A DNA stretch of 64,000 bases from IMG/VR virus record IMGVR_UViG_3300031992_000072, positions 16,402 to 80,401 of that record; one strand, given 5' to 3'. The translations under genes were made by a program, and so were the position numbers. The DNA is from a virus (Duplodnaviria > Caudoviricetes). The notes beneath the pieces are model-generated. The model was not told where the DNA came from and did not search any database. It worked only from the letters and a program-made list of their open reading frames with translations. Positions 105 through 56,700 of this stretch are shown piece by piece. Each line of letters begins with the position of its first letter. Position 1 is the stretch's first letter.

Positions 105-2927
105 TTATGTCTCTGTCGAGGACAATAGCAAGCGAGTAGTACGTGCTTCTATAATCGCTTTCTGTTCTAGTCGTTTGGCTCGCTGTGTTGCCTTCTTCTG
201 CACCAGTCTGTATGTTATTTGGCAATCTTCACATCTGCACTGGTTAGATGCTTTACGCTCACACATTATTCCGCAGTCAATGCATTCATAGAAACCTTTG
301 GTGTTCTTTACACACTGATGATTCTTTACCCAGCTTGGAATTTTTGTATTACAATCCAAGCAAGTGTCGCAATCTTTTAAGTTTGCTTTGATGTTTGACA
401 GAGCAATTTCTCCGAAAACACGCCAGAACATTTGCTTATGGGCAGGTTTATTCATTCCTTCGCCTGCAAACAAATGTTTTACAATATATGGATATGCATT
501 TTCCAACGAACCAAATTTTTCTGTTATTCTGTCTGTTATATCTTCGGCAACTATTTCATATCCATTTATCAGTTTTCTTTCATCTGTATAAGCATTGTCT
601 CTTGCCTCAATGATGCTTGCTTTATTTGAATTGTCCATCTCACAGAATAATTCCGGAATTTCAGGACGTGAATTCACACAAGGTGCTGACAAAAGCATCT
701 GCCAGTTAAATCGAGGCAAACCAGAATAATTTAAATTGATATTTCCAATATCATCAAATGCTTTACAGATACGATTCATTGTAGAATTATTTGGATCTGC
801 ATATTTCTTCTTGCGGTTGTGCGGAGTATCTTTACGCCCGTTCTTGCTGAATGCAAAGAACGTTGGCATACGACCATTCTTTCCGCCGCAGGCTCTGCCA
901 ATACGTTTTGCAATTTGTGGAAAGTCTTTATATTCATGGACGACACCAGTCTTTGCTCCGTCTATACGCAGATTGTTTAAATACGTAAGAAGAGCCGCTG
1001 CCACTCTATCCGGGTTGTCTTTATTCCAGACACGAGTAAGCATATTGGATATTTCGCCAATGTTTGAATAATCATGTGACCTTTTCAGTCCTCTGAAAAG
1101 AGAGTCAAAACTGATTGGTTCCGCATTAGCTACTTCAGCATCGTAAAACAACGGTACAACATCAAAAGCTTTGATATTTCTTTCTGCTATATCAACAAAC
1201 AAAGGATCAACTATAACATTTAGCTGATCCCCGTCGACATCGAACTGCAGAATTCTTGATATCATGCTTTTACAACTTGTATGGATAGCGTTTGTGTAAA
1301 ACCAATCATAAACATTTTGATCGTGTGATATTTTCTGTACAGAGTGCTCAAAATAAAGATGCGGAGATCTTAGAACATCAGCTTTATCATGTCTCCTGAA
1401 GATCTTACATGCGACTTCATCTTTTGCCAGCAAACCTTTCGGTTCTTTGATGCCAAGGAACCAATATTCACAAGCCGCATAAAAGTCAGGCAATACAAAA
1501 AGTCTTTTGTTTTCACACTTTATTTTGCCGGACTTTGCATCAAGAAGCATTCTTTTACGAATATCTCTTAAAGTTTCTTTTGTATAAGCTTCACGTAAAA
1601 GCTCTGGATAATATGCCAGCGCAGCCTTGTACGGTTGTTCAGAATTCTTTTCTGCTTTCAACGTTTTAAGCATCGTATCAGGATCTTTTGTAATACCTTC
1701 AATCCTTGAGTGCTCCTCAGCTGTAAACTGTTTTATTTCATCGTCTGTCATTATTTGAAGCGTCTGTATCTGCTGATAATTTGTGTATGTGTCTTTTATA
1801 TAGTCTTCTTCATAGTTTGTTCTGCTGAAATGACAGTTATTTTCTTTGTAAAATTTCTTATATTCATCCCAGTCTTTATAAAGCTTATATAGTTTAAACA
1901 TAGATGTTGTTAAGATAACATTGATTCTTTCTTTTATAAGATCATGTTTTACACCCCATGCATCTTCTATAATCGGATCAACGTTATTAACCTTGCACCA
2001 TTTTATATAATCCCAGCTGCCCAGTAATCCTTTAATCCAGTCACCTCGTACCATAAAGTTGGATTTTGAAACTTCAGGAAGCATCATTCCGCATCCGTCT
2101 GTATGATCAATCTCAACAGTGCGTACTCCAACTTCATATGAATAATCAGGCTTTATATACATCATTCTGTCTGTTACAGGAGCTTTAAATTCTTTGATAA
2201 CGATACAACGATCTATATCAAAGTCTGTCCACTCTTCTGTGGCTGACGCAGCCAGTGCAAGATATGCCATATATTTTGAAACGTTCAGACTTCCTCTTGA
2301 ATTAATTAAGTCCCAGTCCATTCCGCATTCAAGACGTGCATGAACTTTATCCCACATTTCATCCGAGATGAATACAACCTTATCTCTTCTGAGTTGTCCT
2401 GCGCTGGCTGAGAAAAACCTGTAATGTTTATTCACAACCTTATCGCCATTCAACACAGAAAGATAAAATCCGTTTAAAACAAACTGTCTTAATATTTCAA
2501 GATTTTTCCATTTAATCACAATCAAGTCAAGCGTCTTATCAAGATGCTTCAACCCCATTGATCGTGATAATTCACAACAAAATTCTGCAATCTTCTTTCC
2601 TGTTTTCAGATTATCATATGTAACGCCTTCAGGAAACGGATAATCTGCATCTTTAGGATAATAGATTACGGATTTCAGTCTGACAAATCGTGGTTCATTT
2701 TCATGTTCGTGAATTAACTTTTCAAGGGTTTGCTTTATTTCATTTTTTCTTTGAATGACATTTTCCCGTTCTTCTCCTCCTTTAATGTTTTGAGCGTCCA
2801 TTTCGTCTAGCTTGTTCTTTTCTGCGATTATCTGCATATATAAGTCATATTCTTCGTCAGTGAACAAGTCATAGCTGGATAGGGATACCAACCTTATCTG
2901 CTCTTGCAGATATGTTTTTACAGACAA
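105..2927 (-). CDS. YonO/RdRP-like single-subunit two-barrel RNA polymerase (RNAP-1) with C-terminal Cys-rich Zn ribbons
   Basis: Motifs SASAGQLR, TDGCG, VLRSPH and catalytic FDVDGD (about 1227-1241); C-terminal CxxC pairs. Start moved to TTG at 2927, which follows AGGAGG (about 940 aa). Confidence 0.85.
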   Translation of the reverse strand: MSVKTYLQEQIRLVSLSSYDLFTDEEYDLYMQIIAEKNKLDEMDAQNIKGGEERENVIQRKNEIKQTLEKLIHEHENEPRFVRLKSVIYYPKDADYPFPEGVTYDNLKTGKKIAEFCCELSRSMGLKHLDKTLDLIVIKWKNLEILRQFVLNGFYLSVLNGDKVVNKHYRFFSASAGQLRRDKVVFISDEMWDKVHARLECGMDWDLINSRGSLNVSKYMAYLALAASATEEWTDFDIDRCIVIKEFKAPVTDRMMYIKPDYSYEVGVRTVEIDHTDGCGMMLPEVSKSNFMVRGDWIKGLLGSWDYIKWCKVNNVDPIIEDAWGVKHDLIKERINVILTTSMFKLYKLYKDWDEYKKFYKENNCHFSRTNYEEDYIKDTYTNYQQIQTLQIMTDDEIKQFTAEEHSRIEGITKDPDTMLKTLKAEKNSEQPYKAALAYYPELLREAYTKETLRDIRKRMLLDAKSGKIKCENKRLFVLPDFYAACEYWFLGIKEPKGLLAKDEVACKIFRRHDKADVLRSPHLYFEHSVQKISHDQNVYDWFYTNAIHTSCKSMISRILQFDVDGDQLNVIVDPLFVDIAERNIKAFDVVPLFYDAEVANAEPISFDSLFRGLKRSHDYSNIGEISNMLTRVWNKDNPDRVAAALLTYLNNLRIDGAKTGVVHEYKDFPQIAKRIGRACGGKNGRMPTFFAFSKNGRKDTPHNRKKKYADPNNSTMNRICKAFDDIGNINLNYSGLPRFNWQMLLSAPCVNSRPEIPELFCEMDNSNKASIIEARDNAYTDERKLINGYEIVAEDITDRITEKFGSLENAYPYIVKHLFAGEGMNKPAHKQMFWRVFGEIALSNIKANLKDCDTCLDCNTKIPSWVKNHQCVKNTKGFYECIDCGIMCERKASNQCRCEDCQITYRLVQKKATQRAKRLEQKAIIEARTTRLLLSSTET

Positions 2928-2985
2928 ACAGACCAGTCCTCCTTTTATGAATTTATATGATAAATCCCTTACGGGAATTGAATTT

Positions 2986-3017
2986 AAAAGCCGTGCGTTA
3001 TGGGCGTTTCGCACGGC
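2986..3017 (-). terminator. Terminator-like hairpin in the RNAP-1 leader
   Basis: GCCGTGCG-N12-CGCACGGC followed by TTTT on the minus strand, about 60 nt before the start codon. Confidence 0.5.
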
Positions 3018-3264
3018 ACGTAGCCATTCTCCCATGCCCTATGGCTTGCACCCATCAGGTTCGCCTGTCCCTGAACTATGACGAGAAACGAGAATACACC
3101 AAACGGGTTCGAACTTGAGAGGGTGTGCTGACAAAATCCTATTGCTCGCTCGTTTCTTTTTGTTGGAAAGGAGGTGTCACTCACAACACGTTTAACGTCA
3201 CCACACTATAAATGACGGGAGCTTTTCCAGTCAGAGCAATAAGTATTTGCCTCTCAGAAATTAG

Positions 3265-3335
3265 TAGGGCGTCTGAGAATTGAACTCAAATTGATGGTTT
3301 ATAAGACCATTCTTCTACCGTTGAAGTAACGCCCA
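3265..3335 (-). tRNA. trnI: tRNA-Ile(UAU)
   Basis: Cloverleaf folded by hand: D stem CTTC/GAAG, anticodon arm ATGGT-CTTATAA-ACCAT, T arm TTGAG-TTCAATT-CTCAG. U1:U72 mismatch; no encoded CCA. Confidence 0.8.
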
Positions 3336-3645
3336 TCAAAAAGAGCCGCTATAGAACAACGAAAGGAAAATCTATAACGGCTCAGGCAACACGAGAACTC
3401 GTACTGGTCTTGGCTAATGACTCGAAGGATGTTCGCGAGTCTTCACGCACGAGAGAGTTGCTGCTGCATCAGTAAGTATCGTCCCAATACCGCTGTGAAA
3501 TCGTATTTTAAAATTGTGTGAGGTGATGATACATACTCTTTTTATTAAATTGGCGGCATCAGGAGGTGAGCCTGACATTAATGCTTGATCACGCAACCGC
3601 ATATAAAGACTGCATTGGATATCACTGTGTCCTTTTAATGCAGCT

Positions 3646-18084: not shown

Positions 18085-18085
18085 T

Positions 18086-26589: not shown

Positions 26590-27280
26590 TGCCCACCCGA
26601 GCTGTCCGACGTAAGTCGGACTTATGACGCTGGAAAGAACGCTGATTGGGCCGTCAAGCATGCCCAGGCTCCATACTGCAAACTGACGAGCGTTTAGCAT
26701 GGTTAGCTCAGAGTGGGGCGTTCTTCTTGGTCCTCGACCTTCCCCTTGCCGAGTCTCATACGGTTCTTTCTATGAGCCGAAAAGTTCAGGTTTGATTCCG
26801 CAGGTTCCATCTGCGTAGCGGTTTAACGTCATGCTGGCTGGACGGATGATCGCAACTGTCCCCGGTTTTACATCAGCCCGTGCTATCGGCTGAACCCGAC
26901 CCTTTAACGTCTGGGCTTCGACGGATATGCTTGCTGTGTTTCACATTTCTCGCACCCCGCAAGCACGGGCCGTGTGCCGGACTACGCCAGATCCGGAGAG
27001 TGGGATTACTACGTTCCCCAACGGAAGACTTGTTGTCTTCACCCGACCTGTCCGACGTCAGGAGGACATCACGAGATGCATCGAAGAACTGCATGGGGAG
27101 GAACATTGCAGTTGCTTACGTTGCCGTTTTGAAGCATTGTTGCTTATGTTCTGCTTATCATGTCAGCAGAGTACTCGTTTGGATGTTCGGAGCGTCGGGG
27201 AGCGGAGCGAAAAAATCCCCCCGCCTAAAAATGGGAGCCGCCCCCATCGCCACAAAGAATGCCGTAGCATTCTCGTAGGC
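26590..27280 (-). ncRNA. Candidate large structured ncRNA
   Basis: About 690 nt, GC-rich, no RBS-supported ORF; many hairpins (GTCCGAC-TTAC-GTCGGAC, GAAGAC/GTCTTC, CGCAG/CTGCG, CTCATA/TATGAG). Confidence 0.4.
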
Positions 27281-27320
27281 ATAAAAAAATAAAAAAGAAC
27301 CAGTCAAAACTGGTTCTTTT
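27279..27320 (-). terminator. Intrinsic terminator (conserved early-region type)
   Basis: AGAACCAG-TTTTGA-CTGGTTCT followed by TTTTTATTTTTTTATGC. Confidence 0.8.
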
Positions 27321-27335
27321 TAAAGGTGTAATGTT

Positions 27336-29102
27336 TTAATTTACGAGTTCCTGAAAAGTCTCATAACTATGTATTCTTACGTTTTCCCAGAAACGTCCTT
27401 TGTAGCCATTGATGCTTGCATCTGCTTTAACGAGCGTTAAATCAGGAAGCTCTTTTTGATCATAGTCTGCTGCTCTTATTACAGCCCAGTTGTATGTTCT
27501 GTTTTGTTCTGCTCCCATGTTGTCGTAATCATCGCAGTTAGCGCTGACTTTCAGTTTTGCATGGTTCATCCATTCATCGATAAAGGGTTTGTATTTAAGT
27601 TCAACAAAGTTGTTGAACTTTGCCTTAATCTGATGAATTTCATTTGCACGAACTTCAATGCAAGCAATATACTTGTTGCCTTTCATCATTTTTACAATTG
27701 TTGTAAACTTTTGAACAGCTGCATTAGCATAACTGCCAACGCAAATTCCCATTCTTTCGCCAACAACAGCAAGATCTACTGAATCTTTCGCTAATTCAAA
27801 CCTGATGTCGCCATATTCACGGTTGAATCTGTTTCGCTCAAAGTCGTTATATTCAATCTCTCTGTTAGTGTATGATTTACGGGTAAGCCTATTGTAGTAA
27901 TGCTGCATAGAGTCATGGATTTCTTGGAAGTTCTTTGCCTCACGTATAATGTACATGAGTCCATCTTCTGGGATGCGCGGCATCATTCTTGAACAATCTC
28001 TGAATACGTTAATATCCTCTTGTTCAAGATGACTGATAACCCAATTTCTGTTCCTAAGCTCAAATAGCTTCGTAAGGAATGTCTTTATTTCAACCCTATG
28101 TTCTTTATATGTTTCGAGAAGTTTAACGCCAAGCGAAAAGCATCTTGGAATTTCATCAACATTTACAATTCCGGCATTCATAATCATTTTCACAATGGCA
28201 ATGTTGTTAATGTTCTTCAAGTAAAGCTTTTTGAAGGCTTTAGACATAGGAACATTGAACTTTCTTGCAATGTAGTAAATCAGGTCCTGTTCAGAGATGG
28301 CTTCTCTTATTTTCAGGGAGTTAAACCATTCAGGGCGAGTTATGCCAAAGACATTAAGACGAACGGCTTCTTTGCGATAAGTATCAAGAGCAAAACTTTT
28401 TGTCGGTCTTAACGCAGCGTTCAGTAACGAATTCTCATCAGCTTTCTCGATGATCCATGCCTTATCAGGATAGAAGGTTTTGAGACATTCTTTAAGTGCA
28501 TGGAGAGTTTCCTGTGCAAGTTTAAGATCGCTGAATGAATTTTTCGCCCAGGAAATCTGACGAATACTTTTTGATAACCCGTCATAAACATAGCAACGAC
28601 CATCAGCTGTAAAGGTATAAGATTTTGAATATTTGGTTTTCTTTACAATGTTTGCGATGCGCATTAATTCAACGTATTCAGTAGTTACTTTCAGATATCC
28701 ATCCGCAATACTGATGTGCTGGTAGATTGGAATTTCACGCACTCTTCTTCCGAGGTGTTCTTTCTGGATATAGATGTTAAATCGAATACTGAATACTTTT
28801 TTGTACTGACGCATTTTGGTTCCGTCAATATAACCGCAGATTTTTTCGCCGTTTTTGTACACGATATATGCTTTCTTTTCAGTGCATTTATCTTTAGCAA
28901 AGGCTTCTGCGTCTTCCAGAGTAGCAAACGGATACAGCGTCCGGTTGCTTTTGTTCTTGACGATATACTTCCAGGTATTCTCGTCATACTTTTCTACGAT
29001 TTTCCGAGCGTAACCGATAGACGAAACATGGGAAATTGTCACGCCTGTCAGCGGGAAATAGATGCACTTTGTGCGAGGAATGTACCACCAAATTTTGTTC
29101 AT
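27336..29102 (-). CDS. PcfJ-domain protein
   Basis: C-terminal L..VGERMGICVGSYA..IACIEVR..IHQIKAKFN; start reset to ATG 29102 (GGAGG). Confidence 0.75.
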   Translation of the reverse strand: MNKIWWYIPRTKCIYFPLTGVTISHVSSIGYARKIVEKYDENTWKYIVKNKSNRTLYPFATLEDAEAFAKDKCTEKKAYIVYKNGEKICGYIDGTKMRQYKKVFSIRFNIYIQKEHLGRRVREIPIYQHISIADGYLKVTTEYVELMRIANIVKKTKYSKSYTFTADGRCYVYDGLSKSIRQISWAKNSFSDLKLAQETLHALKECLKTFYPDKAWIIEKADENSLLNAALRPTKSFALDTYRKEAVRLNVFGITRPEWFNSLKIREAISEQDLIYYIARKFNVPMSKAFKKLYLKNINNIAIVKMIMNAGIVNVDEIPRCFSLGVKLLETYKEHRVEIKTFLTKLFELRNRNWVISHLEQEDINVFRDCSRMMPRIPEDGLMYIIREAKNFQEIHDSMQHYYNRLTRKSYTNREIEYNDFERNRFNREYGDIRFELAKDSVDLAVVGERMGICVGSYANAAVQKFTTIVKMMKGNKYIACIEVRANEIHQIKAKFNNFVELKYKPFIDEWMNHAKLKVSANCDDYDNMGAEQNRTYNWAVIRAADYDQKELPDLTLVKADASINGYKGRFWENVRIHSYETFQELVN

Positions 29103-29140
29103 GAGTAACCCTCCTAAAATGTTTTTTGGAACCAAACGTT

Positions 29141-29178
29141 CCCATAAAAAAATAAAAAGGCTAGCCGGAGCTAGCCTT
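29141..29178 (-). terminator. Intrinsic terminator
   Basis: AAGGCTAG-CTCCGG-CTAGCCTT followed by a T-rich tract. Confidence 0.8.
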
Positions 29179-29184
29179 ATAGGA

Positions 29185-32100
29185 TTAGTCGATCTTAAGA
29201 TCGTCTTCCGTGGCAGAGAGAGCAGCTTCTGCTTCGTCTGCACAGCTGATTTCAACGGCAAGACCGCCGAAGATCAACCGATACGCAGACCAGAGCTTAT
29301 TCCTGATGAAGTCGGTCTTCCCGTCCATCTTCAGGTACTTCTCATCGCAGTACGCGAACATCTGCCAGGTGATCACGTCGTATGCGTCTTCCAGCGTCTT
29401 TCCGTGAGCGACCGCGAAGGCTTCGATCTCTGCAAGAGCGTTTGCTCTCCATGCCATTTCGAAGGTAACTTCGTCGTCGTCTTCGCTGACATTGTTCTTG
29501 TCCTTATTGCTATCATCGTCCAGCCAGACAGCACGGTCACGGTCCAGCCTTCTGGCAAGGCTGTTAAACAGACCCTGATTCGGACGGAACCTTTCACCAT
29601 TGATGGTTACGAGTTCTCCGTTTCCTTCCCGGATCAGTCCGGTCAGACCACGATATCCGCATTCCTGATTGAACATGATCTTCTTGTAGTCGAACTGTCC
29701 TTCAGGCGCATCGTCGATCTTTACGTCTCTCCGAGCATTCTCTGCATACAGAGCGAAGAGCTTGTTCAGCGTCTTATACCTGTGGAGCTCGTTGAGCTTG
29801 GACGGATCAGCCAGTTCATCCAGATGGTTCTTGGGAGTCTGAAGCAGACTGTCGTTCAGATAGAGGCTATTGCTCTTATCAAGCGAGAACCTGTCGATCA
29901 TTACAGGTTTTCCGTCCGGTCCAAGCTGAACGATTCCGTCATCGTCCGTAAGGACAACGTACCTGGTTTCCTTGTAGTACGTGTTTGCTTCCCGAGCAGT
30001 TGCGAAGAACTTTTTCTTACCGTTGTGCTTTACATACCAGATGTTGCCTTCATCAACGGCATCTTTGTATACCTTCGCCCACGGCTGAAGCATACGAGCA
30101 CAGATAGAGCTTTCTTCAGGCTCTTCAATTTCCGCTCCGCCATGCTTGCTTGCGTCTACCAGAACGTTCGCAGCGAACTTCTTGAAGTCTACGCCGCGAT
30201 GAGTGACGGGCATCCTCTTGGTATACCAGCGTTTGTCCACTTCGTCCTGTTCTGTGAGCAGACCGTTCAGCAGAGCATTGAGCCCATAGACGGTAAGCCC
30301 AAGCTCATTCATATGGGTCAGACCCGCGAAGTACTCTCGAAGAACCTCTTCGGTAATCACAGTCTTCTCCGGGTTGGGCGTTTCCCAGATAATCAGTCTG
30401 TTCCATACCTTGAGTGTTTCTTTGACAGCCTCGATGATCGCAGGATCATCGCTGGTGTTGGCGTGGTCTCCATCAAAGTCCATGTCCATGGCGACTGCTA
30501 CGTCGTCATGGCAGTTCAGGAAGATTGTATATTCTTCGTTCTTAATGAACTTTCTGTAATTGCTCGGAATGGATACATTCTCCAGAACACGGACACTGTT
30601 CGGATGAACCACAGGGCTACGCCACATGGCGAGCTCTCCGTGCTTCACGGTCGGCAGATGGATCTGACCAGCCTTCAGCATTCCGTTGTCGTTCTTCCCA
30701 TGCCACGCGGCAAGGATGAAGAACGGATCGGGACAGACAAAGCTGTAGAAGCAGTCCTTCAGAATCTTTCCCGAAAACGCTTCGTTGATGTTCTGCTCCA
30801 TCTTATGTTCAATATGTTCTCTGAAAGAGGGAACGTTCACGAGCTCAGGATACTGTACGGCAACGCTGCCCCATTCTCTTCCGAGCATCTTTGTAGCGCT
30901 TTCAACTGTGTGATTGTCGTTCAGACGCTTGATGGTCTTTGCAGCCATCTTTGCAACCTGTTCATCGGTTGCTTCGCACAGGCACTGCGTTACCTGATAC
31001 GAGATGTTCTTCTTTTCCTTGGGATGAGTCTTGACTACGGTGCCAAGGGTGATCTTTTCACCCATAGCCGTACACCAGTCTTCAAAGGTCTTGTAGGCCT
31101 TGTTCTTGCCAATGCTGGTCTTGATGACAGACTCGTCCACGAAGAAGACGATATCATCGATATCCCGTCCGTCAGGTGTCTTGGTTACGCCAATGGACTT
31201 CAGGTAGGCCTGAGCATTCACATTCTTGCAACCCAGACCTTTCAGCTTCACGGGGTTGCCCCTGTAGCTGTAGAACGACGTGTCGTTCTGGAAGTCGTTC
31301 AGAATCTTGTCTGCCTTTTCAGCAGACATTCCGTTGTAAACCATCTGGTTGTGTAGTTCCATCTGAACCTTCTTCGTCATGCTGATGACGAAGAATCCGT
31401 CAGAGAACTTCACAGGAACAAGATCGTTATCCCTGTCTTCGGCATGACCGTCAAGATACAACTTCGTTGTGTTTGCCACAACGTTCTTGACTACAGTCGG
31501 ATAGATGCAGAACATCTCCGGCTTGAACGGAATTTCGATCTGGTGGCTGTACACTGCGATCAGACCTACGGTATAAGCGATGTTCTTGGCAGCAGTGTTC
31601 TGCCATTCATCATCGACTCCGCCATTAGTGTATTCCCGCATCTTGTCATAGATACTTTCTTTTACTGCAATGGTCTTGCACCATTTCGCAGCGTTCGTGC
31701 CGTGTCCGAAGATACGGTACTTGACGTTGTTCACGAGAAGACCGTTCTCGATCACGTCCAGCCATGCATCGAGCAGCCTCTCGGCACGGATGATACCTTC
31801 GAGGTCTTCCTCGTTCTTCGGCTCTGCGATGCGGCTAACTACGTGGATGACAGCATCTTTACCGCCAATTTCCATTGCCTTATCTTCTACAAGACTGACG
31901 GACTTGCGGATCGTGTCATAGACCCACAGGTTTTCAGACGTAGGATCGTTGTTCAGCTGAGCACGAATGAACTCCATGCTTTTGTACGTCTTTACGGTTT
32001 CAGGCTTACAGATCTTCCGCAGGGCGCGGACAACCTTGATGGCGGTTTTCTCACCGATGCCCTTGATTGCCGTAAGCTTCTCGATATTGTTGGTGGCTAC

Positions 32101-32436
32101 TGCGTTCCGCAGCTCACCACAGTCAATCTTGATGACAGCCTCGATCATCGGCTTATTGATCTTTTCCTTGATCATCAGCCCAATGGCGTTGATCTGCCAC
32201 TGCTTTTCGTCCAACAGTGTGTAGCAGTCATAGTCCCAGTTGTGAGCGTCAAGGACGACTCTGGTTCCATCGATAACGGACTCCAGAAGGCACTGATAAT
32301 CGCCCTTCTTGGCGTCTTCAAAGTAGCCGTAAGCCACCTTGAGATCGTCGCGTTCTACAAAGTGTACTTTTCCTGCGTTCGGGCCTTTCTTGATGATGCA
32401 AGAAACCCTGAACAGAATGTTAATAAGTTTCGCCAT
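29185..32436 (-). CDS. Second YonO/RdRP-like two-barrel RNA polymerase (RNAP-2) with N-terminal helix-hairpin-helix
   Basis: FSDGFF, WRSPVVHP and MDFDGD (about 30466-30480); LTAIKGIGEKTA HhH near residue 120; AGGAGG RBS; C-ending codon bias. Confidence 0.8.
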   Translation of the reverse strand: MAKLINILFRVSCIIKKGPNAGKVHFVERDDLKVAYGYFEDAKKGDYQCLLESVIDGTRVVLDAHNWDYDCYTLLDEKQWQINAIGLMIKEKINKPMIEAVIKIDCGELRNAVATNNIEKLTAIKGIGEKTAIKVVRALRKICKPETVKTYKSMEFIRAQLNNDPTSENLWVYDTIRKSVSLVEDKAMEIGGKDAVIHVVSRIAEPKNEEDLEGIIRAERLLDAWLDVIENGLLVNNVKYRIFGHGTNAAKWCKTIAVKESIYDKMREYTNGGVDDEWQNTAAKNIAYTVGLIAVYSHQIEIPFKPEMFCIYPTVVKNVVANTTKLYLDGHAEDRDNDLVPVKFSDGFFVISMTKKVQMELHNQMVYNGMSAEKADKILNDFQNDTSFYSYRGNPVKLKGLGCKNVNAQAYLKSIGVTKTPDGRDIDDIVFFVDESVIKTSIGKNKAYKTFEDWCTAMGEKITLGTVVKTHPKEKKNISYQVTQCLCEATDEQVAKMAAKTIKRLNDNHTVESATKMLGREWGSVAVQYPELVNVPSFREHIEHKMEQNINEAFSGKILKDCFYSFVCPDPFFILAAWHGKNDNGMLKAGQIHLPTVKHGELAMWRSPVVHPNSVRVLENVSIPSNYRKFIKNEEYTIFLNCHDDVAVAMDMDFDGDHANTSDDPAIIEAVKETLKVWNRLIIWETPNPEKTVITEEVLREYFAGLTHMNELGLTVYGLNALLNGLLTEQDEVDKRWYTKRMPVTHRGVDFKKFAANVLVDASKHGGAEIEEPEESSICARMLQPWAKVYKDAVDEGNIWYVKHNGKKKFFATAREANTYYKETRYVVLTDDDGIVQLGPDGKPVMIDRFSLDKSNSLYLNDSLLQTPKNHLDELADPSKLNELHRYKTLNKLFALYAENARRDVKIDDAPEGQFDYKKIMFNQECGYRGLTGLIREGNGELVTINGERFRPNQGLFNSLARRLDRDRAVWLDDDSNKDKNNVSEDDDEVTFEMAWRANALAEIEAFAVAHGKTLEDAYDVITWQMFAYCDEKYLKMDGKTDFIRNKLWSAYRLIFGGLAVEISCADEAEAALSATEDDLKID

Positions 32437-32610
32437 GGTATTTTCCTCCTAAGATAGTTTTTTAGTCTGCTGACAAGCAACAGGCAGTATCAGTTGCGCT
32501 TTGGGAATAGCGCCTCTCGTGACGTGAGAGCAACGGTGGCATCGCACCACACACCGCCAACTCCGGTTGATTCAAGGTTTCCCCGCACCTGCAGGACGGC
32601 TTGCCTTCTG

Positions 32611-32652
32611 CCGCATAAAAAATAAAAAAGCTGAGCCGTTAAGCTCAGCTTT
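32611..32652 (-). terminator. Intrinsic terminator
   Basis: AAGCTGAG-CTTAACGG-CTCAGCTT followed by TTTTATTTTTTATGC. Confidence 0.8.
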
Positions 32653-32657
32653 TAATG

Positions 32658-33440
32658 TTATTTTGCAAGCTGCAGGCTTTCGATGAACGCTTGTGCTTCT
32701 GCCATTTCTTCATCAGAGAGCAGATTCATAGGTGCTGCTTCACGCGGGTCATGACCTCCCCATTCCCTCCAAGAAATTTCTTCAGGAATTGGGTATTCAT
32801 ACTTAATAGTCGCAATCTTTGTGGAGTACTTCTCCTCAATGGTTGCAATCTCTGATTGCTTCATTGTGCCGATATATCCGATTTGTACATTCTTGATGAT
32901 GATGTCATTTCCGTTACACCGCTCTACTCCAACAAAGTCACCGACTTTGTGAGCAGAGTTTGTTTTGAATGTATATTTTGCCTCTTCGTTTGGAGAATAG
33001 CGAACTTTTACAATGCTAATATCAGGATCATCAGAAATAACCTGCCTGACAGGCAAAACAGGTTTCTTCCAGCTCGGAGCAATAATTTGAATATTTGTTA
33101 TTCCAGTTATGGCGAGTTGTCTTGCCCGTTCAACTTGCCTAGTGATCCAAGTCTTATGAGACAGAGGTTCTAAGCGACCAACCTCTGTGAAGCCGATCAC
33201 CTCAAGCTGCTTATCGGCTTCGATGTATGTGACACCGACAGCCTCAACGCCTTTAAAATACGCTCTCTTCAAGGCATCCATCAGTTCTTTTACGGCATTT
33301 TCGCCGTTAAAGAACTTGTAATGTTTAACTATACCTTCATACCAGAAGATGAAGGTAAGGCGCATGAACAGCGTAATGTTCATTATAGGGTCTGCGATAT
33401 ACAGCAGCTGTTCAGTTCCGAAGGTCTGAGTAAGTTTCAT
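32658..33440 (-). CDS. Hypothetical early protein
   Basis: 260 aa, AGGAGG RBS. Confidence 0.75.
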   Translation of the reverse strand: MKLTQTFGTEQLLYIADPIMNITLFMRLTFIFWYEGIVKHYKFFNGENAVKELMDALKRAYFKGVEAVGVTYIEADKQLEVIGFTEVGRLEPLSHKTWITRQVERARQLAITGITNIQIIAPSWKKPVLPVRQVISDDPDISIVKVRYSPNEEAKYTFKTNSAHKVGDFVGVERCNGNDIIIKNVQIGYIGTMKQSEIATIEEKYSTKIATIKYEYPIPEEISWREWGGHDPREAAPMNLLSDEEMAEAQAFIESLQLAK

Positions 33441-33510
33441 AGGAACACCCTCCTTGTTTTATTGTCGGACTTTGTCCGTATAAAAAATAAAAAAAGCACC
33501 CGAAGGTGCT

Positions 33511-33789
33511 TTACACGCCATATGCGTTACATATCCATGAAGGAAGACAAATATGTGTTTTTATATTTATACCTTTTTCCTTCAGAAGTTCTTCCGCTGC
33601 AATAATTTCATCATTTATTGCAACAAGATCAAATGGATGCGCTGCTCTGATTGCAACATATATTCCTTCAATCTTTTCGTCATTAATACTCTCAATTTCA
33701 TCGAGAGCATCGTTGATCCAAGATTCAAGGAATCTTTTACTTCTGTTGTACATCCAATCCCATTTAGAATTCGTGCCAACACGTGCCAT
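33511..33789 (-). CDS. Hypothetical early protein
   Basis: GGAGG RBS 8 nt before ATG 33789; followed by a terminator at 33476-33511. Confidence 0.7.
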   Translation of the reverse strand: MARVGTNSKWDWMYNRSKRFLESWINDALDEIESINDEKIEGIYVAIRAAHPFDLVAINDEIIAAEELLKEKGINIKTHICLPSWICNAYGV

Positions 33790-33901
33790 TTCAAGCACCT
33801 CCTATTTTTTATTTGACAGCTGTAGACTGCCACAACCTATTGTGGATAGGCTGCATAAAAATAAAAAAAGAGCCCTATCTCACGACAGTGCTCTTTTTTT
33901 G

Positions 33902-34192
33902 TTAATCGTTATACAATTCAGGATGGATAACATAGTTAACATCTGAATCATATTCAAGACGATTCGTTTTAATGTTGTATTCAAAGAACTTATCTTCAAA
34001 TACGACAATATCGTCTTTATAATACACACAACCAAGATCTATAGCTTCATCGAGTGAAGCGTAACGGACTTCCCAATCCTGCCGCATGAAATACGGCACT
34101 GTAGCAAAAGCCTCTTCTTTGCTGGAAGCAGCAAACAGATACGTCTTTTCATCTCCGGCGATGGAGACACACCAAATGTAAAACAGGAACAT
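33902..34192 (-). CDS. Hypothetical early protein
   Basis: RBS present; terminator at 33851-33900. Confidence 0.7.
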   Translation of the reverse strand: MFLFYIWCVSIAGDEKTYLFAASSKEEAFATVPYFMRQDWEVRYASLDEAIDLGCVYYKDDIVVFEDKFFEYNIKTNRLEYDSDVNYVIHPELYND

Positions 34193-34388
34193 AACAACAC
34201 CTCTTTCTTTATTATTTGCAGCTGGACTACACTGCTATTTAAAGTCCATTAAAATAAAAAAAAGAGTCAGGCCGAAGCCTGCTCCTTTATGATTACGATA
34301 CTGCCATGGATTTCCGCATCTGGGTAATCTTCTCTGACTTCTGTAGCGGAATCGTAGTAGTATGTATTATCGCCATCTATGACTTTGA

Positions 34389-34784
34389 TCATATGATACC
34401 TCCATAGTATACTTGAAGGATTATATCGTCGAAGATGCTTTTTGGATCACCTGATTTTTGAACAAGGAATCCAACGATGTCGTCTTCTTCGAGTTCATCG
34501 TCTTCTTCCTTCTCCCATAACCAGATGACCCCTGCGCCATCTCGGATGTAGGCGACGTTCTCTTCGTCTACATCCTCAATGATGCCAACACGAACGTAGA
34601 TATCGTCCGTGTTAATCGCGGTGATCTCCTCGGCTCCTGCTGGAGTAACGAAGATGATCATTAACAACAGCATAGCAACTACGATGATACTTGCTGGTAC
34701 TTGCCAGCATTTCTGGCAAAGTTTGATGAAGAGATATCCAGCGAGGATACCAATCAGAATGATATACATTACAACAAACAACAT
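34389..34784 (-). CDS. Membrane protein
   Basis: Two hydrophobic segments then an acidic domain; AGGAGG RBS. Confidence 0.7.
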   Translation of the reverse strand: MLFVVMYIILIGILAGYLFIKLCQKCWQVPASIIVVAMLLLMIIFVTPAGAEEITAINTDDIYVRVGIIEDVDEENVAYIRDGAGVIWLWEKEEDDELEEDDIVGFLVQKSGDPKSIFDDIILQVYYGGII

Positions 34785-34886
34785 AGGAACATACCTCCTT
34801 TTTCTTAGTCAGCTAAGTGTTGCTTCTTAGCCGCCGTAAAAAAAAAAGAACAGGACTCAACAGTCCTGTTCCCATGGAAGGGTTCT

Positions 34887-35096
34887 TTACACAAAGAACC
34901 CTTTTTCTTCTCTCATTTCTAAATAACGCTGGAAGTAATAATATGCCACAGCGTTATCAGAATTTATCTGTTTGCCCTTCTCATATCTTACGATTATCGT
35001 GAAAAGGGCGTGTGTGCTTTCTTGCGAAAGCTTCATGCCTCCTTTTTCCAGCTTTTTGATAATCTGGAAATTAGGAATCGATTTTTTAACTGACAT
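34887..35096 (-). CDS. Small basic hypothetical protein
   Basis: AAGGAG RBS before MSVKKS. Confidence 0.55.
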   Translation of the reverse strand: MSVKKSIPNFQIIKKLEKGGMKLSQESTHALFTIIVRYEKGKQINSDNAVAYYYFQRYLEMREEKGFFV

Positions 35097-35349
35097 ATTA
35101 TTATCTCCTTTTCTTTTAGTTGACAACCTTTGTTTTTAGGCTGCATAAAAATAAAAAAGAGCACAGCTTTCTCAAGCTGGCTCTTTATATTCAGTTGTAT
35201 TTAATTAGATTCTTGATGGTGACTCAGCCTTTATAAAAAAAAGAAAAGCATGAATTAACATGCTTTTCTCTTAATATTTAGTTTTTTAGAGATTATATAT
35301 ATAAGCTTCTCTCTACTGCGTCTTTGCAACCCAAGCTACTTGTTGCAAA

Positions 35350-36110
35350 AACTTCTTCTCTCTATCTTGCTTTAAGAGAAAGGGGCAATGGGTCCCTAAG
35401 CTTGCTTAAGGCTCTTTTGGAGCAAGCACATCGCCTCTCTTGTACGGACGTTGTGCCACATTGTGCTTAATTCCCCATCTTGTAGGATGGCGGGCTCCAA
35501 TGTTGGGCACAACTCCAAGAGATTTAATGCGACAAGGCTTCTCACGTTTTGTGAGAACGATTGCGAGTTACCTATTTGGTGTTACTTCCCTCGCAGTACG
35601 CTGCTTCTTCCTCTTACGTTTTCGTAGTGCTTTAGCTTTTGCTCTGCAACGTCGGTTTACCAACGAACCTTCGATGCATTTACTACTTGCTTCAGCACAC
35701 TGAACGTGGGTGTTCAGCGGTCATTTTGCTGGATGACACTCCTGACCATAATCCGCTATGCCTGTGTCACGAACTCTTTGCAGAATTCCATTCAGAAAGA
35801 AGTCTTCACATTAGACTTTCCGTATCACTCTACAAATAACGTTTCAGGTTTTGCTCCTGCCTAGTCGCCCAAGCAACACCGTGTTGCTGTTTGACTCCAG
35901 CTAGACCAGAAACTTTTTTGCAGAGACTTCATAGCGGATTACGCTTTTCTCTTCAACATTTTCTACGAGTTTCTTCGAGCCATGTTGTTACTCGCATACT
36001 ATTGTTTGCAGCCTATCCTGTTATGCTCACAGGATTTGGTCTTCCTCGAATTGCTTCTGAGGCACATCCACCAGCTGTGGATGGGGATAGATCCCGTGGT
36101 CTATCGCCGC
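35350..36110 (-). ncRNA. Candidate long non-coding or structured RNA region
   Basis: About 750 nt bracketed by early-type terminators; no convincing minus-strand ORF; several hairpins (TTCTCAC/GTGAGAA, GCAACAC/GTGTTGC, ATCCAC/GTGGAT). Confidence 0.3.
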
Positions 36111-36129
36111 ATAAATAAAAAAAAGGGGC

Positions 36130-50767: not shown

Positions 50768-53700
50768 ATGAGTAATCCAACAATACAAATTGATCTCGAA
50801 GTTAATGGCGAAAAAGCATTACAATCAATAAGCAATTTTAAAAAAGATGCAGATGAAAAACTTTCTTCTATTGGGAAAATTGAAAAATCGTTTGCTCCGG
50901 CTGTTGAACAGTTAAATTCTGATAAATCATTATTAGGTTCTGGTGAAGCTTTTGATTCGTTTGCTAACTCAATAATGACTGCAAACAATGCAATTGCTCA
51001 AATGAGAAAAACGTTGAATAGTTTTTCTTCTTCTATTGATCTTGGAAACATTACAGACGGTATGACACGAATGTTTGAATCTGCATACCGCACAATGTTA
51101 TCAAGCATAAAAACATTAAATGCAGAAGTTGATAGAGGATTGTCAAAAGGTCCAAAAAACATTAACGCATATACGCAAGCTGAAAAATCAATAAAACTTG
51201 CCTCTGTGACTGGTCAGTCTGCTTCTGCCGACATGATTAGAATGTTAAGAATTGTCAACAACGCGCATCGTGAAACAGGATTAAATGCAGATCAGCTTGG
51301 CGAAATCATGCCAGCTCTTTCTTCTATTGTTAGAGCTAAAACGGACGAATATAGAAAAGCAACAAAATCTACTCCAAGATTAAGTGAATTAGCAAACTTT
51401 ATTGCAAATGAGGATATATTTAAAAATACAGTTGGATCATCTATTAAAGGATATAATCCTACGCAACAGCAACTTGCACAAATTGCAAAAGGAGCAATTG
51501 TTGCAACAAGAAGCAATGCATATAGAGATAATTTAGAGATTCTTAAAGCGGCTGGACTTAAAGGCAGCGAGTATCAATATGTAACAGATCAAATGCCTGA
51601 AGTATTTAAAAAAGCATATATTAATTACGGAAGACCGAATAGTTCAAAAGAAACAAATATTATCGCTAAAAATATAGGTAAACAAGCCGTAGATGAAGAA
51701 GTTTACAAAAAATTTATGCAGCTTGTTCGGAACGGAAACCAGCAAGCTATTAAGATTGGACAGGATGTAGGACTTGTACGTGCTAGAAACGGTTCTTATC
51801 AGTTTACTGGTAATGCAAGAAAAGCACAATTCGATACAATGGCTGGTATTGTTGCTCAAGTTGCTGGTGAAGCAAAGAGTTCTTTACCCTATCATTACAT
51901 TCAAAGAAACGATCAAACACAACAACAGAAACTATTAAACAGAAACAATAATATTTTTAACGATGCTCTTGAACTAATGGAAATTTTAAGCGGACAATCT
52001 GGACTTGATCCAAATGCTTATGGATACGTTCCGTTTGGTACAACAAGAGAATCTTTAAAGAATTATAGAGACTTGTTTGGTTTTGTTGGCTCTGGGAAAA
52101 ACTATAGACGCTTCAATAAAAATGCTCCTAAAATTCAAACGCTTGGTGTTGCTAATCAGTATGTTGTTCCTAAAACACATTTGGATCAAAATGGAAATCT
52201 TGTATGGAGAGATCCATCTTGGCAAAAGACAAATGGTGTTCAAGAGTCGAAAGATGATCAGTTTGCAACAATAGGTAACAGTGCTCTTACATATTTGCTT
52301 GGAATGCATGGGCACAATACATACGGATATGGGAGAACTGACGAAGGAGAAGCAAATTATCAAACACCAAAGGTTGTCAGAATAAGCACGTCACATTTAT
52401 ATAAACAAATAAGAGAAAAAAATGGGACAAGGATGATTGTAGATCCTGAAAAACAGACAGAAGCTGATCGCATTAATCGTCTTTTTGCTAGAAAAGAAAC
52501 AGCTCACTACACTCGTCCTGGCGAAAAAGAAAACGATGATAATGAATATATTGCTGCTATGGGTGATGCAGAATCACTTACAATGATTCGTAAAAAGGAT
52601 TATGATGCTATAGTAAGTAATTTTGCTAAATATGGTATGGCAAATCCATTTGATAACATGAACACAGGCGGTTTGTTTATATCTGGTGATTATAAAAATG
52701 CGGCAAAACAAATTGACTTGTCCAAGAAAAAGGCAACGCCAGGATTTCGTTATGCAGAATTAGGATATGCAAAATCTCCTTCTGCTGCTTTGGTAGACTT
52801 TGAGCAGTTATATGAATATCTTGGAATACCAAAAAACAATCAATTTATGCGTCAAAGTCAGCGTCTGGATGGTCTTGCTCTTTTTGATCCAAGCGTTCTT
52901 GGTGTCAATGCGCAGATGCGTGCTGGTATTGTTGGAAAATTTATGGGTCAAGCAACGGACTGGCGAAAATTATTATACGAATCTGGCATATTAGAAAGTG
53001 CATACAAAAAAGCAACAACTGGAGACAAAAGAAATTCAGGATTAATTGTTAAAAATGGAAGCAACGGTGTTCCTCAGGATTATTCTTTTTATATGCCTAT
53101 GGTTGGCTTAGAAAAAGAAGAAGCGCAATCATATATTGATAGAATAAATGAACTTCAAAGAAAAGCCAACAATGGACCTATTTCTGAAGATGAAAAAAAT
53201 GAGCTTGAACGAATCAGAAACACATATTTTTATGATATCATGGATAAAAAATATGATGCTCTGATTGCCGAATCTACGATAAAGAACAACGATAAGTATA
53301 GAATTATTTCAAAAAATGCTTTTACAAATAAAGATGGTTTATTTCGTGGAGAAAAATGGGTAAAAGATCGCGGAGATGGAACTGTTGAATTATCAGCAGA
53401 CCAACAACGCAGATATTTTGAAGCAGCTGTTAAAGAATCTGGTGGCTATTGGATTAACAAAACTGGATATGACTTTCGTACTGATAAAGATTTTATACCT
53501 GAATCTCTTGCAACAGCTATGGGTCTTGAAGTTGGGGATTTAAAAGATCAATCTAATGAAAATTATAACGAATACATTCATAAACTTGAGACAGATAAAA
53601 ATGCAAGAATAAACTTTTTAAATACAACAGCTTACGGAAGACGTCTTGTCCAAGAAGGGTTATATGACAGTGATCTTGCAGATAGGTTAATCAGATCACA

Positions 53701-56700
53701 CATTAATGATTATGCTTCTAAGCAACAACAAGGACACTTGTTTCTTCCTCAGTATGGGATAGATAATCTTTTAACTGGTGTTTTGCCTGGTTCTATATTT
53801 GGAAATATTTTTGAACAAGGTTTTGATGTAAAGGTTTCAGATAATAATGATTATAGAAAATTGTTTTCGTATCAAGGCGATGAAGATCGTGTATTTATGA
53901 AAACGTTAAACGGAAAACAACAAGAAGCGTTACGAAATAATGCAATAGCTGCAAAGCTTATGTTATCTCGTATGCCAGCTGGCCCTGGCGAATATGGGAT
54001 AGGCGTACAAAACTTGGGTGACATAGAAGCTATGCAGAAAGCTTTGGATGCACTTGGTGTTGATTATTCTGATACTATATTTACAGACCCAAGTCTTCAA
54101 TATAAATTAATGACAGGTGACTACGATGGAGATACTGCTTGGGTTATCAGAGGTTTAAACGACAATCAATTTGCTCGAATGCAACAAATTCAAGATTATG
54201 TACAACGAGCAAGAGAGAAAATAATGTCACAAATGGACACAGCTTCTCCAGAAGAAAAAAAAAGACTTGAAAATGACTTACAAGCTTTTACTAATTTTGG
54301 CGCTGATCACTTTACCGCTCAAATTGGTATGGGTCAAGCTACAGCTGCAATAAGAAACTCTCTCGCAGACTTGTCCGATAACGATCCTGATAAATGGATA
54401 GCGATAGCAGAAGCTATCGACGCATATGATAAAAATACTTCTGAAGCTATGAAAGAAGGCAAGATTGTAAATCTTGGTGTGCACGCTTCAAAACAAGCAA
54501 TGGAAGGTGGATTGTTCAGAAGGTTTATCAAACAGATTAACGCTTACGGGCAAGGCTCTGAAAACGCTCATCCAGACTTGTTTGCTACAAGACTTCCAGA
54601 AATTCAAGATACAGGAACATTATTCGATATTGTTTCTAACTTTAGAAATAAAAGAAATGGTAGCGATGTTGGTAAACGGTTTGGTAGTGATCTTGATAGT
54701 TGGTTGTTTGAACAGTATGGTTATTCAAATTCTTTTGAAGCGCAAGCTGCCAGAGCTTATGCTGATATGTTTAAAAACATAGAAGGTGGCATTCGTTTAA
54801 CTTCAAAAGACGATATTTCAAATGCGAGATTAATTGCGGTAAGATGGCAAAATTCTCTTGAAAAAGATAGAAAAGCAAACAGAGATCCTGAAGCTTTGGC
54901 AGAAGAACAACATCGTTTAAATCAGTTTGTCAAAAGACTTCACCAAGTAGAAACATCCGGTTCTTTGCATGAAGATTTTTTAGCACAAACAGAAGAACTG
55001 GAAAATGAAAGAACACGACTTATTAAATCTGGTGTTACTGAAGATGATAAAAGAATTATTGGTTTAGATAAGAAAATTGGATTATATAAAACTTTAACAT
55101 CTGATCTTTCTCTTCCTTTCCAAATCGCAAAAGAAAACTGGGAAACAGAACAAAAGGAAATGGACGAAGAAGTTCGCAAAAGATATGAAGCAAATCTTGC
55201 ATTAGCTAAGACAAATAATGTAAATATGACCAACGGTGTTATGGCTATGCTTGGACCTGCTTTGTCTACAGATTTAGTTAAAGCGGGCAAAATTAACTTT
55301 TCAGATGTAACTCCTTGGTTGTATGAAAATCTTGCTAAAGATCAATTTAGACTTAAAGGCATTGAAGGTTTTGAATTTAATGAGAATGGCGAAATGGTCA
55401 GAGACAAACTGCCAAAGAAAACTGTTGACTTTTTCCCATGGCCTCATAATGTTGAAGGTATTAAAAGTCAAAAAGCAGAAATTCTTGCAAGAGAAATGGA
55501 CACTCGCCATGAATGGGTCCCGGGTTATTCAGAATCTATTGCGACAATAATGGGTAAAATTCGACATGAATCTTTCGAAGAAGCATTGTTGCAATACGCA
55601 AAAGGCGAAACTGCTGATATCGCAAAGATTTATGAGGGAATGTTAACTGCTGCAGATAGCAGTACAAGCTCGCCATTTAGAAAATTAGGGTACTCTCTTA
55701 AAAGGGATGAAAAAACAGGAGTATATACGGTAGAAGGTGCAGATAATTCAATCAACGAAGGTATAAGAGGAGCCTTAGGAACATGGAATGAAAAGACTCA
55801 AAAATATGAAGGCGGCTCTCTTTCGAATTTGTATAATTATATTACTTCTAACGGATATCGTGTTGCCAACATAGAAGGTTTTAACATTAATAAAAAAGGC
55901 GAAAAAATGAATTCTAGGGAAACCGTACCAGATGATTACTTTGGTCGTGGTACAGTTCTTAGAACAAAGATAAAAAGCCCAACAGGAGAAGAAATCGATA
56001 AAGTTGGTACATTTGCTCCTGATTTAATTCTTCAGGGTAAAGATGGAAAGTACCATATGTTAGACTACAAATCTGGAGAACAAGGTGCTTATGATAGTCT
56101 TTACCAAATGATGATTTATGCAGCTGATATTCAGGAAAAAGTTCAGCAATTCAGAAATTCCGGACAAAGAGCAGAAGCTAAAAAACTTGGTTGGGATCAA
56201 TATCTTGACAATAAAGGAAATTTAAAATTTGGTAGTGTTTTTGGTTTTGATACGCAAGCCGGAAAAGGATATAAATTTTCATTTAGCCAAGATGCCGCAC
56301 AAGAATTATCTTCGAGATACAAAGAATCTATTCAGTCAAAATTGTTTGCAAGCGATGAAGAACTTGTTTCTGCTCAAAGACGCCTTGTTGCAGAAGTTGC
56401 TAAAAAGTACGGAATCGAACAAGAACATATCCAAAAGAAATCTACAGAAGAAGCAGTTCGTGGATTAACAAAAGATGATGCAAGAGGAAGTTGGTATTCT
56501 AATTATCTTGCCGATAAATTCAATAAAGACGAAGATACGTTAAGAGAAATTTCAAGCACAGGATATGCCGCAATTCGTCGCTATGGCGATAGAGAAGTTG
56601 GTGGATACAGCAAATATGCATCTTCTCGTAGAATGCTTGATGAAATGATTGATCCTGAAACGATAGATCAATTAATAGGACAAGCAAAAGAAAAAGGAGA

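Follow-up and report, generated by a model that had tools for sequence, protein, structure and literature searches.

Three predicted single-chain RNA polymerases, one embedded in the tape measure protein, in an uncultured SPbeta-related phage

Three predicted polymerase genes on one phage contig

We analyzed a 64,000-nucleotide stretch of viral DNA (the window), bases 16402-80401 of the 80,401-bp contig IMGVR_UViG_3300031992_000072, which carries three genes for predicted single-chain, two-barrel (double-psi beta-barrel) RNA polymerases (RNAPs). These are RNAP-1, related to YonO of phage SPbeta; RNAP-2, a more divergent member of the same family; and a domain embedded in a giant open reading frame (ORF) that encodes the tape measure protein (Table 1). 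Two precedents frame the analysis. YonO is a DNA-dependent RNAP whose aspartate triad is essential (Forrest et al. 2017, PMC5467207), and Thermus phage P23-45 encodes both a tape-measure-fused virion RNAP, gp96, and a non-virion RNAP, gp64 (Chaban et al. 2024, PMC10770324; PDB 8h2m, 8f5m).

Genes in the window run leftward up to ~36.3 kb and rightward beyond. The leftward block contains small early genes, RNAP-2, a PcfJ-like gene, RNase H and two single-stranded DNA-binding protein (SSB) genes; further on come a Ubl/E1/JAB-like cluster and a reverse transcriptase, both taken from the first-pass annotation of the sequence, and then the YonO-like gene. In the rightward block we find HNH/terminase, portal, virion structural and tape measure genes. 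Judged from the sequence, this gene order fits the annotation's assignment of RNAP-1, RNAP-2 and the tape measure domain to middle, early and virion modules. The contig ends inside the giant ORF, and a CheckV-type estimate puts its completeness at 69%. Because one of its proteins is also found on a 116,861-bp contig, the whole genome is probably about 115 kb. Thus, the contig probably represents ~69% of an uncultured, SPbeta-related phage of the siphovirus type.

Each of the three proteins had been credited with a DxDGD motif (FDVDGD in RNAP-1, MDFDGD in RNAP-2 and GDYDGD in the giant ORF) preceded by RxP, and we located all of these motifs where they had been placed, with RxP lying 41-48 residues ahead of the first Asp. 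Translated in all six frames, the window contains the pattern D-[hydrophobic]-DGD four times, compared to 0.05 +/- 0.26 times in composition-preserving shuffles. The fourth copy, at nt ~14356 in an acidic 154-aa ORF, has no companion motifs and is probably there by chance. All three polymerase-like proteins additionally carry DG and R..K motifs, 220-370 residues upstream of RxP and 265-420 residues upstream of the triad. In alignments of 31 (RNAP-1), 16 (RNAP-2) and 18-19 (tape measure domain) homologues, the DG, R..K, RxP and DxDGD motifs are invariant or near-invariant, and within DxDGD the three Asp residues and the Gly show no variation at all (31, 16 and 18 homologues, respectively). The first-pass annotation had listed a missing second barrel among the findings that would overturn its proposal; at the level tested none of the three proteins lacks it, as the first-barrel DG and R..K motifs are conserved in all three families.

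RNAP-1 is, by sequence, clearly an orthologue of SPbeta YonO. It aligns with SPbeta yonO at 32% identity over 87% of the query (tblastn, E 4e-109), and among cultured phage records it matches the YonO genes of all SPbeta-like phages. It also matches phrog_8308 (E 2e-165) and, above the curated cut-off, the Pfam RdRP model PF05183 (E 6.9e-14), and its motif residues do not vary in the 31 homologues. Database gene calls give a 940-aa form that starts 36 codons later than the longest ORF. Metagenomes are rich in YonO-family proteins, which form more than 760 clusters there, many of them on contigs of 100-180 kb.

RNAP-2 belongs to a rare family of 16 sequences. Residues 115-697 match phrog_8308 (E 1.4e-29), and its PF05183 score of 23.2 bits falls slightly below the 23.8 cut-off. 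Comparing the two families directly, HHalign gave a probability of 99.8% (E 3e-28) over 493 columns that span both barrels. Residues D346, G347, R392, R606, P608, D653, D655, G656 and D657 are invariant in the 16 homologues. Near the N-terminus, two helix-hairpin-helix (HhH) models match residues 111-141, and by structure comparison residues 79-146 resemble (HhH)2 modules of the RuvA/UvrC type. An AlphaFold2 (AF2) model of RNAP-2 (predicted local distance difference test, pLDDT, 83.6) was compared with solved structures using VIA-align, an aligner independent of Foldseek. The best matches were maize RDR2 (ZmRDR2; Z 18.2, 646 residues aligned), QDE-1 (16.8), P74-26 gp62 (15.0) and P23-45 gp96 (10.9), followed, for the second barrel, by the beta-prime subunits of cellular, poxvirus, African swine fever virus and phiKZ polymerases (Z 8-9). 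In the model these alignments cover residues 147-1075 and hence both predicted barrels. No RNAP-2 orthologue was found by tblastn in cultured phage records, including SPbeta, where YonO was matched only weakly. As modeled, RNAP-2 is a divergent YonO-family paralogue with a two-barrel RNAP fold and an added (HhH)2 domain. Directly downstream of RNAP-2, a 641-codon ORF (27336-29261, minus strand) contains the PcfJ-like domain (E 4e-11); in its longest form this ORF overlaps the 3' end of RNAP-2 by 77 nt, and its true start is probably further in.

Table 1. Positions of the polymerase genes, their motifs and repeated DNA elements in the window, and of the corresponding genes in relatives
Sequence	Feature	Position	Strand	Details
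Window	RNAP-1, YonO orthologue	105..3035	-	976 aa as longest ORF
Window	RNAP-1 FDVDGD	1227-1241	-	residues 598-603
Window	RNAP-1 R556-S-P558	1362-1370	-	41 residues ahead of first Asp
Window	RNAP-1 first-barrel R..K	2031-2048	-	
Window	RNAP-1 first-barrel DG	2094-2099	-	
Window	RNAP-2	29185..32436	-	1083 aa; first large gene of leftward early block
Window	RNAP-2 MDFDGD	30466-30480	-	residues 652-657
Window	RNAP-2 R606-S-P608	30613-30621	-	45 residues ahead of first Asp
Window	RNAP-2 (HhH)2 domain	31999-32202	-	residues ~79-146, N-terminal
Window	Giant tape measure ORF	50768..64000	+	open to end of window and contig; single frame, table 11
Window	Predicted two-barrel RNAP domain in giant ORF	52265..54667	+	residues ~500-1300; predicted structure and motifs
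Window	Giant ORF first-barrel LDG	52862-52873	+	
Window	Giant ORF first-barrel QMR..K	52913-52939	+	
Window	Giant ORF R1068-M-P1070	53969-53977	+	48 residues ahead of first Asp
Window	Giant ORF GDYDGD	54119-54133	+	residues 1117-1122
Window	Tape measure core, PhageMin_Tail PF10145	58484..59110	+	residues 2573-2781; E 1.5e-28, 100.5 bits vs cut-off 33.2
Window	Early-region junction, seven copies	27279, 29142, 32613, 33478, 33853, 35143, 36109 (span 27279..36124)	-	GC-rich hairpin, then TTTTTTATTTTTTATGC, then second small palindrome
Window	GC-rich 35-nt element, three copies	24191-24225, 26589-26623, 27035-27069		core CACCCGACCTGYCCGACGT
Window	Motif A, ~46-54 nt, four co-oriented copies	3649-3680, 13824-13855, 23465-23496, and one 12.8 kb upstream of window	-	repeat search
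G006	YonO	4.9-7.3 kb	-	genome 110,614 bp, terminal repeat, 100% complete
G006	RNAP-2 type	27.3-28.9 kb	-	
G006	Giant ORF	from 50,485	+	5494 codons; RWP...GGGDVDGDT at residue 998; PhageMin_Tail confirmed
G007	YonO	63.4-65.1 kb	-	genome 107,106 bp, 107-bp terminal overlap, 100% complete
G007	RNAP-2 type	81-82.6 kb	-	
G007	Giant ORF	across contig ends		6648 codons; polymerase motif as in G006, at residue 1046; tape measure position
G001	YonO and fused domain			95% complete; RFP...TGDFDGDT at residue 1039; RNAP-2 undetectable
G003	HhH-bearing RNAP-2 type and fused form			44% complete; YonO outside the fragment, if present

A probable polymerase domain within the tape measure protein

The giant ORF follows, on the same strand, the genes for terminase, portal and virion structural proteins. 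Its full-length database form, identical over the region, is 5958 aa long. Besides the PhageMin_Tail core, twelve tape measure PHROGs match residues ~2370-2920, and all of these matches share one uninterrupted ORF with GDYDGD, confirming that this motif indeed lies inside the tape measure. The polymerase domain and the tape measure core therefore occupy a single stop-free ORF of the tail module, which is the architecture of P23-45 gp96. A scan for PhageMin_Tail that covered the window ORF, the 4565-aa homologue P0013 and the giant ORF of G006 found the same combination of polymerase and PhageMin_Tail in P0013.

Sequence libraries gave no hint of the polymerase. Residues 500-1500 of the giant ORF had no match in Pfam, PHROGs or PDB sequences, and a phmmer search of PDB sequences returned nothing relevant for any of the three polymerases. 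BLASTP between the tape measure segment and RNAP-1 or RNAP-2 was not significant. Neither the domain nor its G001 version matched any of 50,697 cultured phage records (tblastn), the late region of the window had no megablast match among cultured phage records, and a search for related loci with a single tape measure segment found none. Among 1.84 billion representatives, phmmer retrieved only 25 relatives of the region, all of them proteins of 4352-6710 aa or fragments of such proteins, and in the full-length ones the domain occupies residues ~450-1550. TGD[YF]DGDT does not vary in any of the homologues that extend over this motif, down to ~25% identity.

Structure prediction was more informative. 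An AF2 model built from 21 sequences (pLDDT 77.7; predicted template modeling score, pTM, 0.71) had QDE-1 and maize RDR2 as its top Foldseek matches, both with a probability of 0.97 and with E values of 3.5e-3 and 5.6e-3. In an unbiased VIA-align scan of 48,161 solved chains, the only ones to reach Z >= 8 were ZmRDR2 (11.8, 476 residues aligned), P74-26 gp62 (9.3, 408/592) and QDE-1 (8.9, 493); the next chains in the ranking were short helical matches to the C-terminal helices of the model. These alignments cover model residues 4-789, which would comprise both barrels. On the strength of the model and the motifs, we conclude that the embedded domain is very probably another two-barrel polymerase, the third in this phage, and that it belongs to a different family from YonO; the invariance of its active-site residues speaks for an active enzyme. 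The proposal that one phage encodes three distinct two-barrel polymerases is thus upheld, through orthology to YonO in the case of RNAP-1, through homology to that family and predicted fold in the case of RNAP-2, and through predicted fold and an invariant catalytic motif in the case of the tape measure domain. We compared the three domains by profile scores and structural Z-scores, since the tape measure domain has no more than short motifs in common with RNAP-1 and RNAP-2.

Two further searches concerned the same protein. Pfam recognized nothing at 55500-56130 on the plus strand (residues ~1580-1790), where a series of PD-(D/E)xK/RecB-like nuclease motifs had been proposed. A degenerate DNA pattern for TGD[FY]DGDT, run against 596 Gb of prokaryote genomes, returned at least 120 loci, almost all of them FG-GAP/VCBS-type repeats; none of the matches listed was homologous by tblastn, so this search identified no prophage or host. 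A host would most likely be found among rumen or gut Firmicutes.

Relatives and repeated DNA elements

The three genes also occur together elsewhere. Two complete, circular relatives, G006 and G007, contain all three polymerase genes in the order and on the strands seen in the window (Table 1). The giant ORF of G007 matches a hidden Markov model of the window's tape measure polymerase family with an E value of 5.5e-49 over positions 3-733, and the giant proteins of G001, G006 and G007 are mutually 29-45% identical over ~1030 residues. The presence of the trio in complete relatives shows that it is a feature of the lineage and no accident of assembly. RNAP-2, however, is not universal. In two additional relatives, L016 and L017, RNAP-2 is the first large gene and adjoins a divergently transcribed structural operon.

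The coding of late genes differs among these phages. Late genes of the window are open under the standard code. In-frame TAG codons were found in late genes of three relatives, at 1-4 per gene in L017 (positions 1-8000; ENA ERZ28613770 scaffold_66), 57 in the tape measure ORF of G006 (50485-66967, read with TAG as sense) and 36 in the giant ORF of G007. The early genes of L017 that were checked, including RNAP-2, contain no TAG, and no stop interrupts the RNAP-2 ORF in either G006 or G007. From the sequences, this looks like TAG recoding specific to late genes in these relatives. Separately, two rumen metagenome-assembled genome contigs, L087 and L026 (RUG14537 and RUG11534), contain ORFs of more than 2100 codons that carry NDLTGDFDGDTLAAV and have no detectable similarity to these polymerase families; they may encode another unrecognized polymerase-like protein, or the motif may be there by chance.

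Several repeated elements in the window could direct transcription. An approximate-match scan of the whole 80-kb contig found clear copies of the junction containing TTTTTTATTTTTTATGC only at 27.3-36.1 kb, all on the minus strand, which is the coding strand there. RNAP-2 has one of them, at 32613-32629, 175 nt upstream. Terminator-like sites are in excess in this early region (27, compared to 8.7 +/- 2.9 expected), and sigma-70-like promoters are not (11, compared to 16.4 expected). We consider the junctions candidate terminator-plus-promoter cassettes of an AT-rich type. A second, GC-rich element with the core CACCCGACCTGYCCGACGT sits between these cassettes and the RNase H and SSB genes and is a candidate for a second class of promoter or operator.

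Motif A recurs on the leftward strand at a spacing of 10-16 kb, and one of its copies lies ~600 nt upstream of the yonO-like gene. Where the virion operon has its head, at 36662-36691, the 3' half of motif A is present as a partial copy that points the other way (score 40, compared to 16.6 +/- 2.9 and a maximum of 29 in shuffles). We regard motif A as a candidate promoter or leader that could serve one of the non-virion RNAPs. Its resemblance to the SPbeta yonN-yonK intergenic region, which contains the mapped YonO start site, is not significant (score 29, compared to a shuffle maximum of 30). A further 47-nt element, motif B, is present in two copies (8995-9041 and 18438-18484) that are 83% identical and contain a hairpin with one compensatory change. 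In the 118-kb contig L016, five copies of a 44-nt GC-rich element lie at 15473-18888, just downstream of the RNAP-2 gene, which suggests that each lineage has its own repeated regulatory motif.

A possible transcription relay and its precedents

Both sequence and predicted structure make it quite probable that this phage has three functional polymerases. We also find it fairly likely that it encodes three single-chain two-barrel RNAPs, the tape-measure-delivered enzyme, RNAP-2 and RNAP-1, that act in stages. Since a tape measure occupies the tail tube and is the first protein out of the virion, the enzyme embedded in its N-terminal third would most likely be delivered with the DNA. It could then transcribe the first genes, meaning the early cassettes including RNAP-2, while the genome enters, a step for which P23-45 gp96 and the general behavior of tape measures are the precedents. 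The restriction of the AT-rich cassette to the early region, with one copy 175 nt ahead of RNAP-2, is circumstantially in line with this step. As the first large gene of the leftward early block, RNAP-2 would be made early and, on the sole basis of gene position, might transcribe the middle region with the yonO-like gene. Given its orthology, RNAP-1 would in turn transcribe the late structural and lysis operon, as YonO does in SPbeta. Such a relay is plausible because of the YonO orthology, the gp96/gp64 precedent, the region-specific DNA motifs and the lack of a sigma-70 excess in the early region. In its full form, with the injected enzyme assigned to early, RNAP-2 to middle and RNAP-1 to late genes, it is a tentative scheme that we rate as somewhat short of probable. 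We infer enzymatic activity, virion delivery, the genes read by each enzyme and the degree of independence from the host RNAP.

Several observations weigh against a staged system of three polymerases. G001, which is 95% complete, has YonO and the fused domain without a detectable RNAP-2, implying that the third enzyme is dispensable in some lineages. In the tape measure model, residues 510-620 around the catalytic loop reach a pLDDT of only 38-61, and the match of this model to P23-45 gp96 is modest (Z 6.5, 349 residues aligned). At the profile level, similarity of the domain to the YonO-type families is marginal, with HHalign E values of 0.001 (RNAP-2) and 0.033 (RNAP-1) and probabilities of 21% and 1.5%, although these alignments nonetheless pair RxP with RxP and triad with triad. 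The assignment of the domain as a polymerase consequently rests on predicted structure and motifs. With respect to regulation, motif A precedes the yonO-like gene and part of it recurs at the late operon head, which blurs a simple division between middle and late genes. In the relatives L016, L017 and G006 we found no verbatim copy of the AT-rich cassette or of motif A, so conservation does not tie any motif to any polymerase. Of what the first-pass annotation had claimed, the three polymerases stand and a staged relay largely independent of host RNAP stays plausible, but the placement of motif A does not fit a clean three-step scheme.

In one rival explanation, only two of the enzymes are transcriptases. 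The tape measure domain would then be a real two-barrel polymerase with another job, such as genome uptake driven by non-specific RNA synthesis, or the production of primers or of double-stranded RNA in the manner of QDE-1. Its closest solved folds are indeed RNA-silencing polymerases with dual DNA- and RNA-templated activity, the DNA motifs allow no promoter to be assigned to it, and each AT-rich early cassette may just as well consist of an ordinary intrinsic terminator with a leader behind it. We nevertheless consider this unlikely, since gp96, the sole tape-measure-fused enzyme that has been studied, is a promoter-specific transcriptase of pre-early genes (PMC10770324), and the missing sigma-70-type excess in the early region calls for another initiating enzyme. 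A more drastic version, in which the domain is a decayed and catalytically dead relic with a structural role in the tail or ejection channel, would account for its absence from every profile library and for the low model confidence around the catalytic loop. This is very improbable: not only TGD[YF]DGDT but also RxP, QxR..K and DG are invariant across its homologues, and even the G001, G006 and G007 proteins, which are more distant still, keep the motif as GDVDGDT or GDFDGDT. Invariance over such distances implies purifying selection on the active site.

RNAP-2 might instead serve the phage replisome, as a replication primase or an R-loop-forming enzyme, rather than transcribe middle genes. 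Its (HhH)2 module is of a DNA-binding kind, it shares a block with the PcfJ-like, RNase H and two SSB genes, and the near-complete G001 does without it. We regard this role as improbable, because RNAP-2 is a paralogue of the proven transcriptase YonO, because in relatives it stands at the very head of the early block and not amid replication genes, and because P23-45 uses such a second enzyme for both early and middle transcription. We therefore continue to favor three polymerases acting in stages. Extending this arrangement to the ~105-120-kb SPbeta-like clade, of which we examined three genomes, as a three-stage program without host RNAP, with a promoter class for each enzyme and TAG recoding in some members, is possible but doubtful.

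No simpler relatives of the cellular transcription enzyme are known than the two-barrel RNAPs of phages. To our knowledge, YonO and P23-45 gp96/gp64 are the only single-chain two-barrel RNAPs from long-tailed phages studied so far, and triad-dependent, template-dependent RNA synthesis in this clade has been shown only for SPbeta YonO, gp96, gp64, QDE-1 and gp66. Many viral genomes encode two RNAPs, and entries in a published survey table include RNAP pairs, YonO pairs among them (PMC10770324). In the literature searched, we found no report that links YonO-type phages with tape measure polymerases, and none of three phage-encoded two-barrel RNAPs in one phage. The parts were already known singly or in pairs, and the trio is an extension rather than a new principle. 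It takes the tape measure fusion, published only for P23-45 and its close Thermus relatives, into the SPbeta lineage, where it occurs beside YonO and a YonO paralogue. The result would be a natural system in which three minimal polymerases from two very different families, presumably with three promoter specificities, share one genome. Such a system lends itself to testing transcription-coupled genome entry directly and to following, as a case study, how two-barrel RNAPs duplicate and specialize; it could yield orthogonal small RNAPs for synthetic biology, and it would explain how a phage escapes defenses directed at the host RNAP.

Among known systems, QDE-1 and RDR2 (PF05183) provide the best structural matches for both the RNAP-2 and the tape measure models. 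They are eukaryotic RNA-silencing enzymes, whereas the phage member that has been studied, YonO, uses DNA templates, and the tape measure domain has no match to the Pfam model. Similarly, gp66 of the crAss-like phage phi14:2 and the virion RNAP of N4 are polymerases inside giant virion proteins, thought to be injected for early transcription, and gp66, of the QDE-1-like two-barrel class, is among the structural matches of both window models. In phi14:2 and N4, however, the polymerases reside in podovirus ejection proteins and not in tape measures. The N4 enzyme is T7-like and not two-barrel, and the three-polymerase scheme of N4 uses the host enzyme for late genes.

SPbeta itself shares with the window a YonO of the same length class and with the same aspartate triad, as well as structural genes of SPbeta type (YonB, the YomU tube and a YomG-like gene, as found in the relative L001). 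In contrast to the window, tblastn found a single YonO-family match in SPbeta and in other cultured phage records. The tape measure of SPbeta, at ~2285 aa, is far shorter than that of the window. In SPbeta, YonO begins transcription of the late operon at one start site only, and its promoter is undefined (PMC5467207).

P23-45 is the closest parallel in organization. Like the window phage, it is a long-tailed siphovirus with a single-chain two-barrel RNAP at residues ~300-1300 of a tape measure of ~5000-6000 residues, a second, free-standing two-barrel RNAP among its first genes and an AT-rich repeated motif in its earliest region, and both of the solved enzymes were retrieved by structure comparison with the window models. 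Its AT-rich promoters are used by the fused enzyme and its GC-rich promoters by the second enzyme (PMC10770324), and the GC-rich 35-mer of the window, with its core CACCCGACCTGYCCGACGT, is reminiscent of the latter. Among Thermus phages, the equivalent of the AT-rich motif tracks the fused domain. Yet the P23-45 enzymes have no detectable sequence similarity to those of the window, and the fused domain of the window is nearer to RDR2, gp62 and QDE-1 (Z 11.8, 9.3 and 8.9) than to gp96 (6.5); the fusion of tape measure and RNAP may have arisen here independently of gp96. The window phage, moreover, falls in the SPbeta-like lineage, whose cultured members infect Firmicutes, and not among the Thermus phages. 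Finally, P23-45 leaves its late genes to the host RNAP, whereas the window phage has a third enzyme, so that its late genes are probably read by a phage RNAP.

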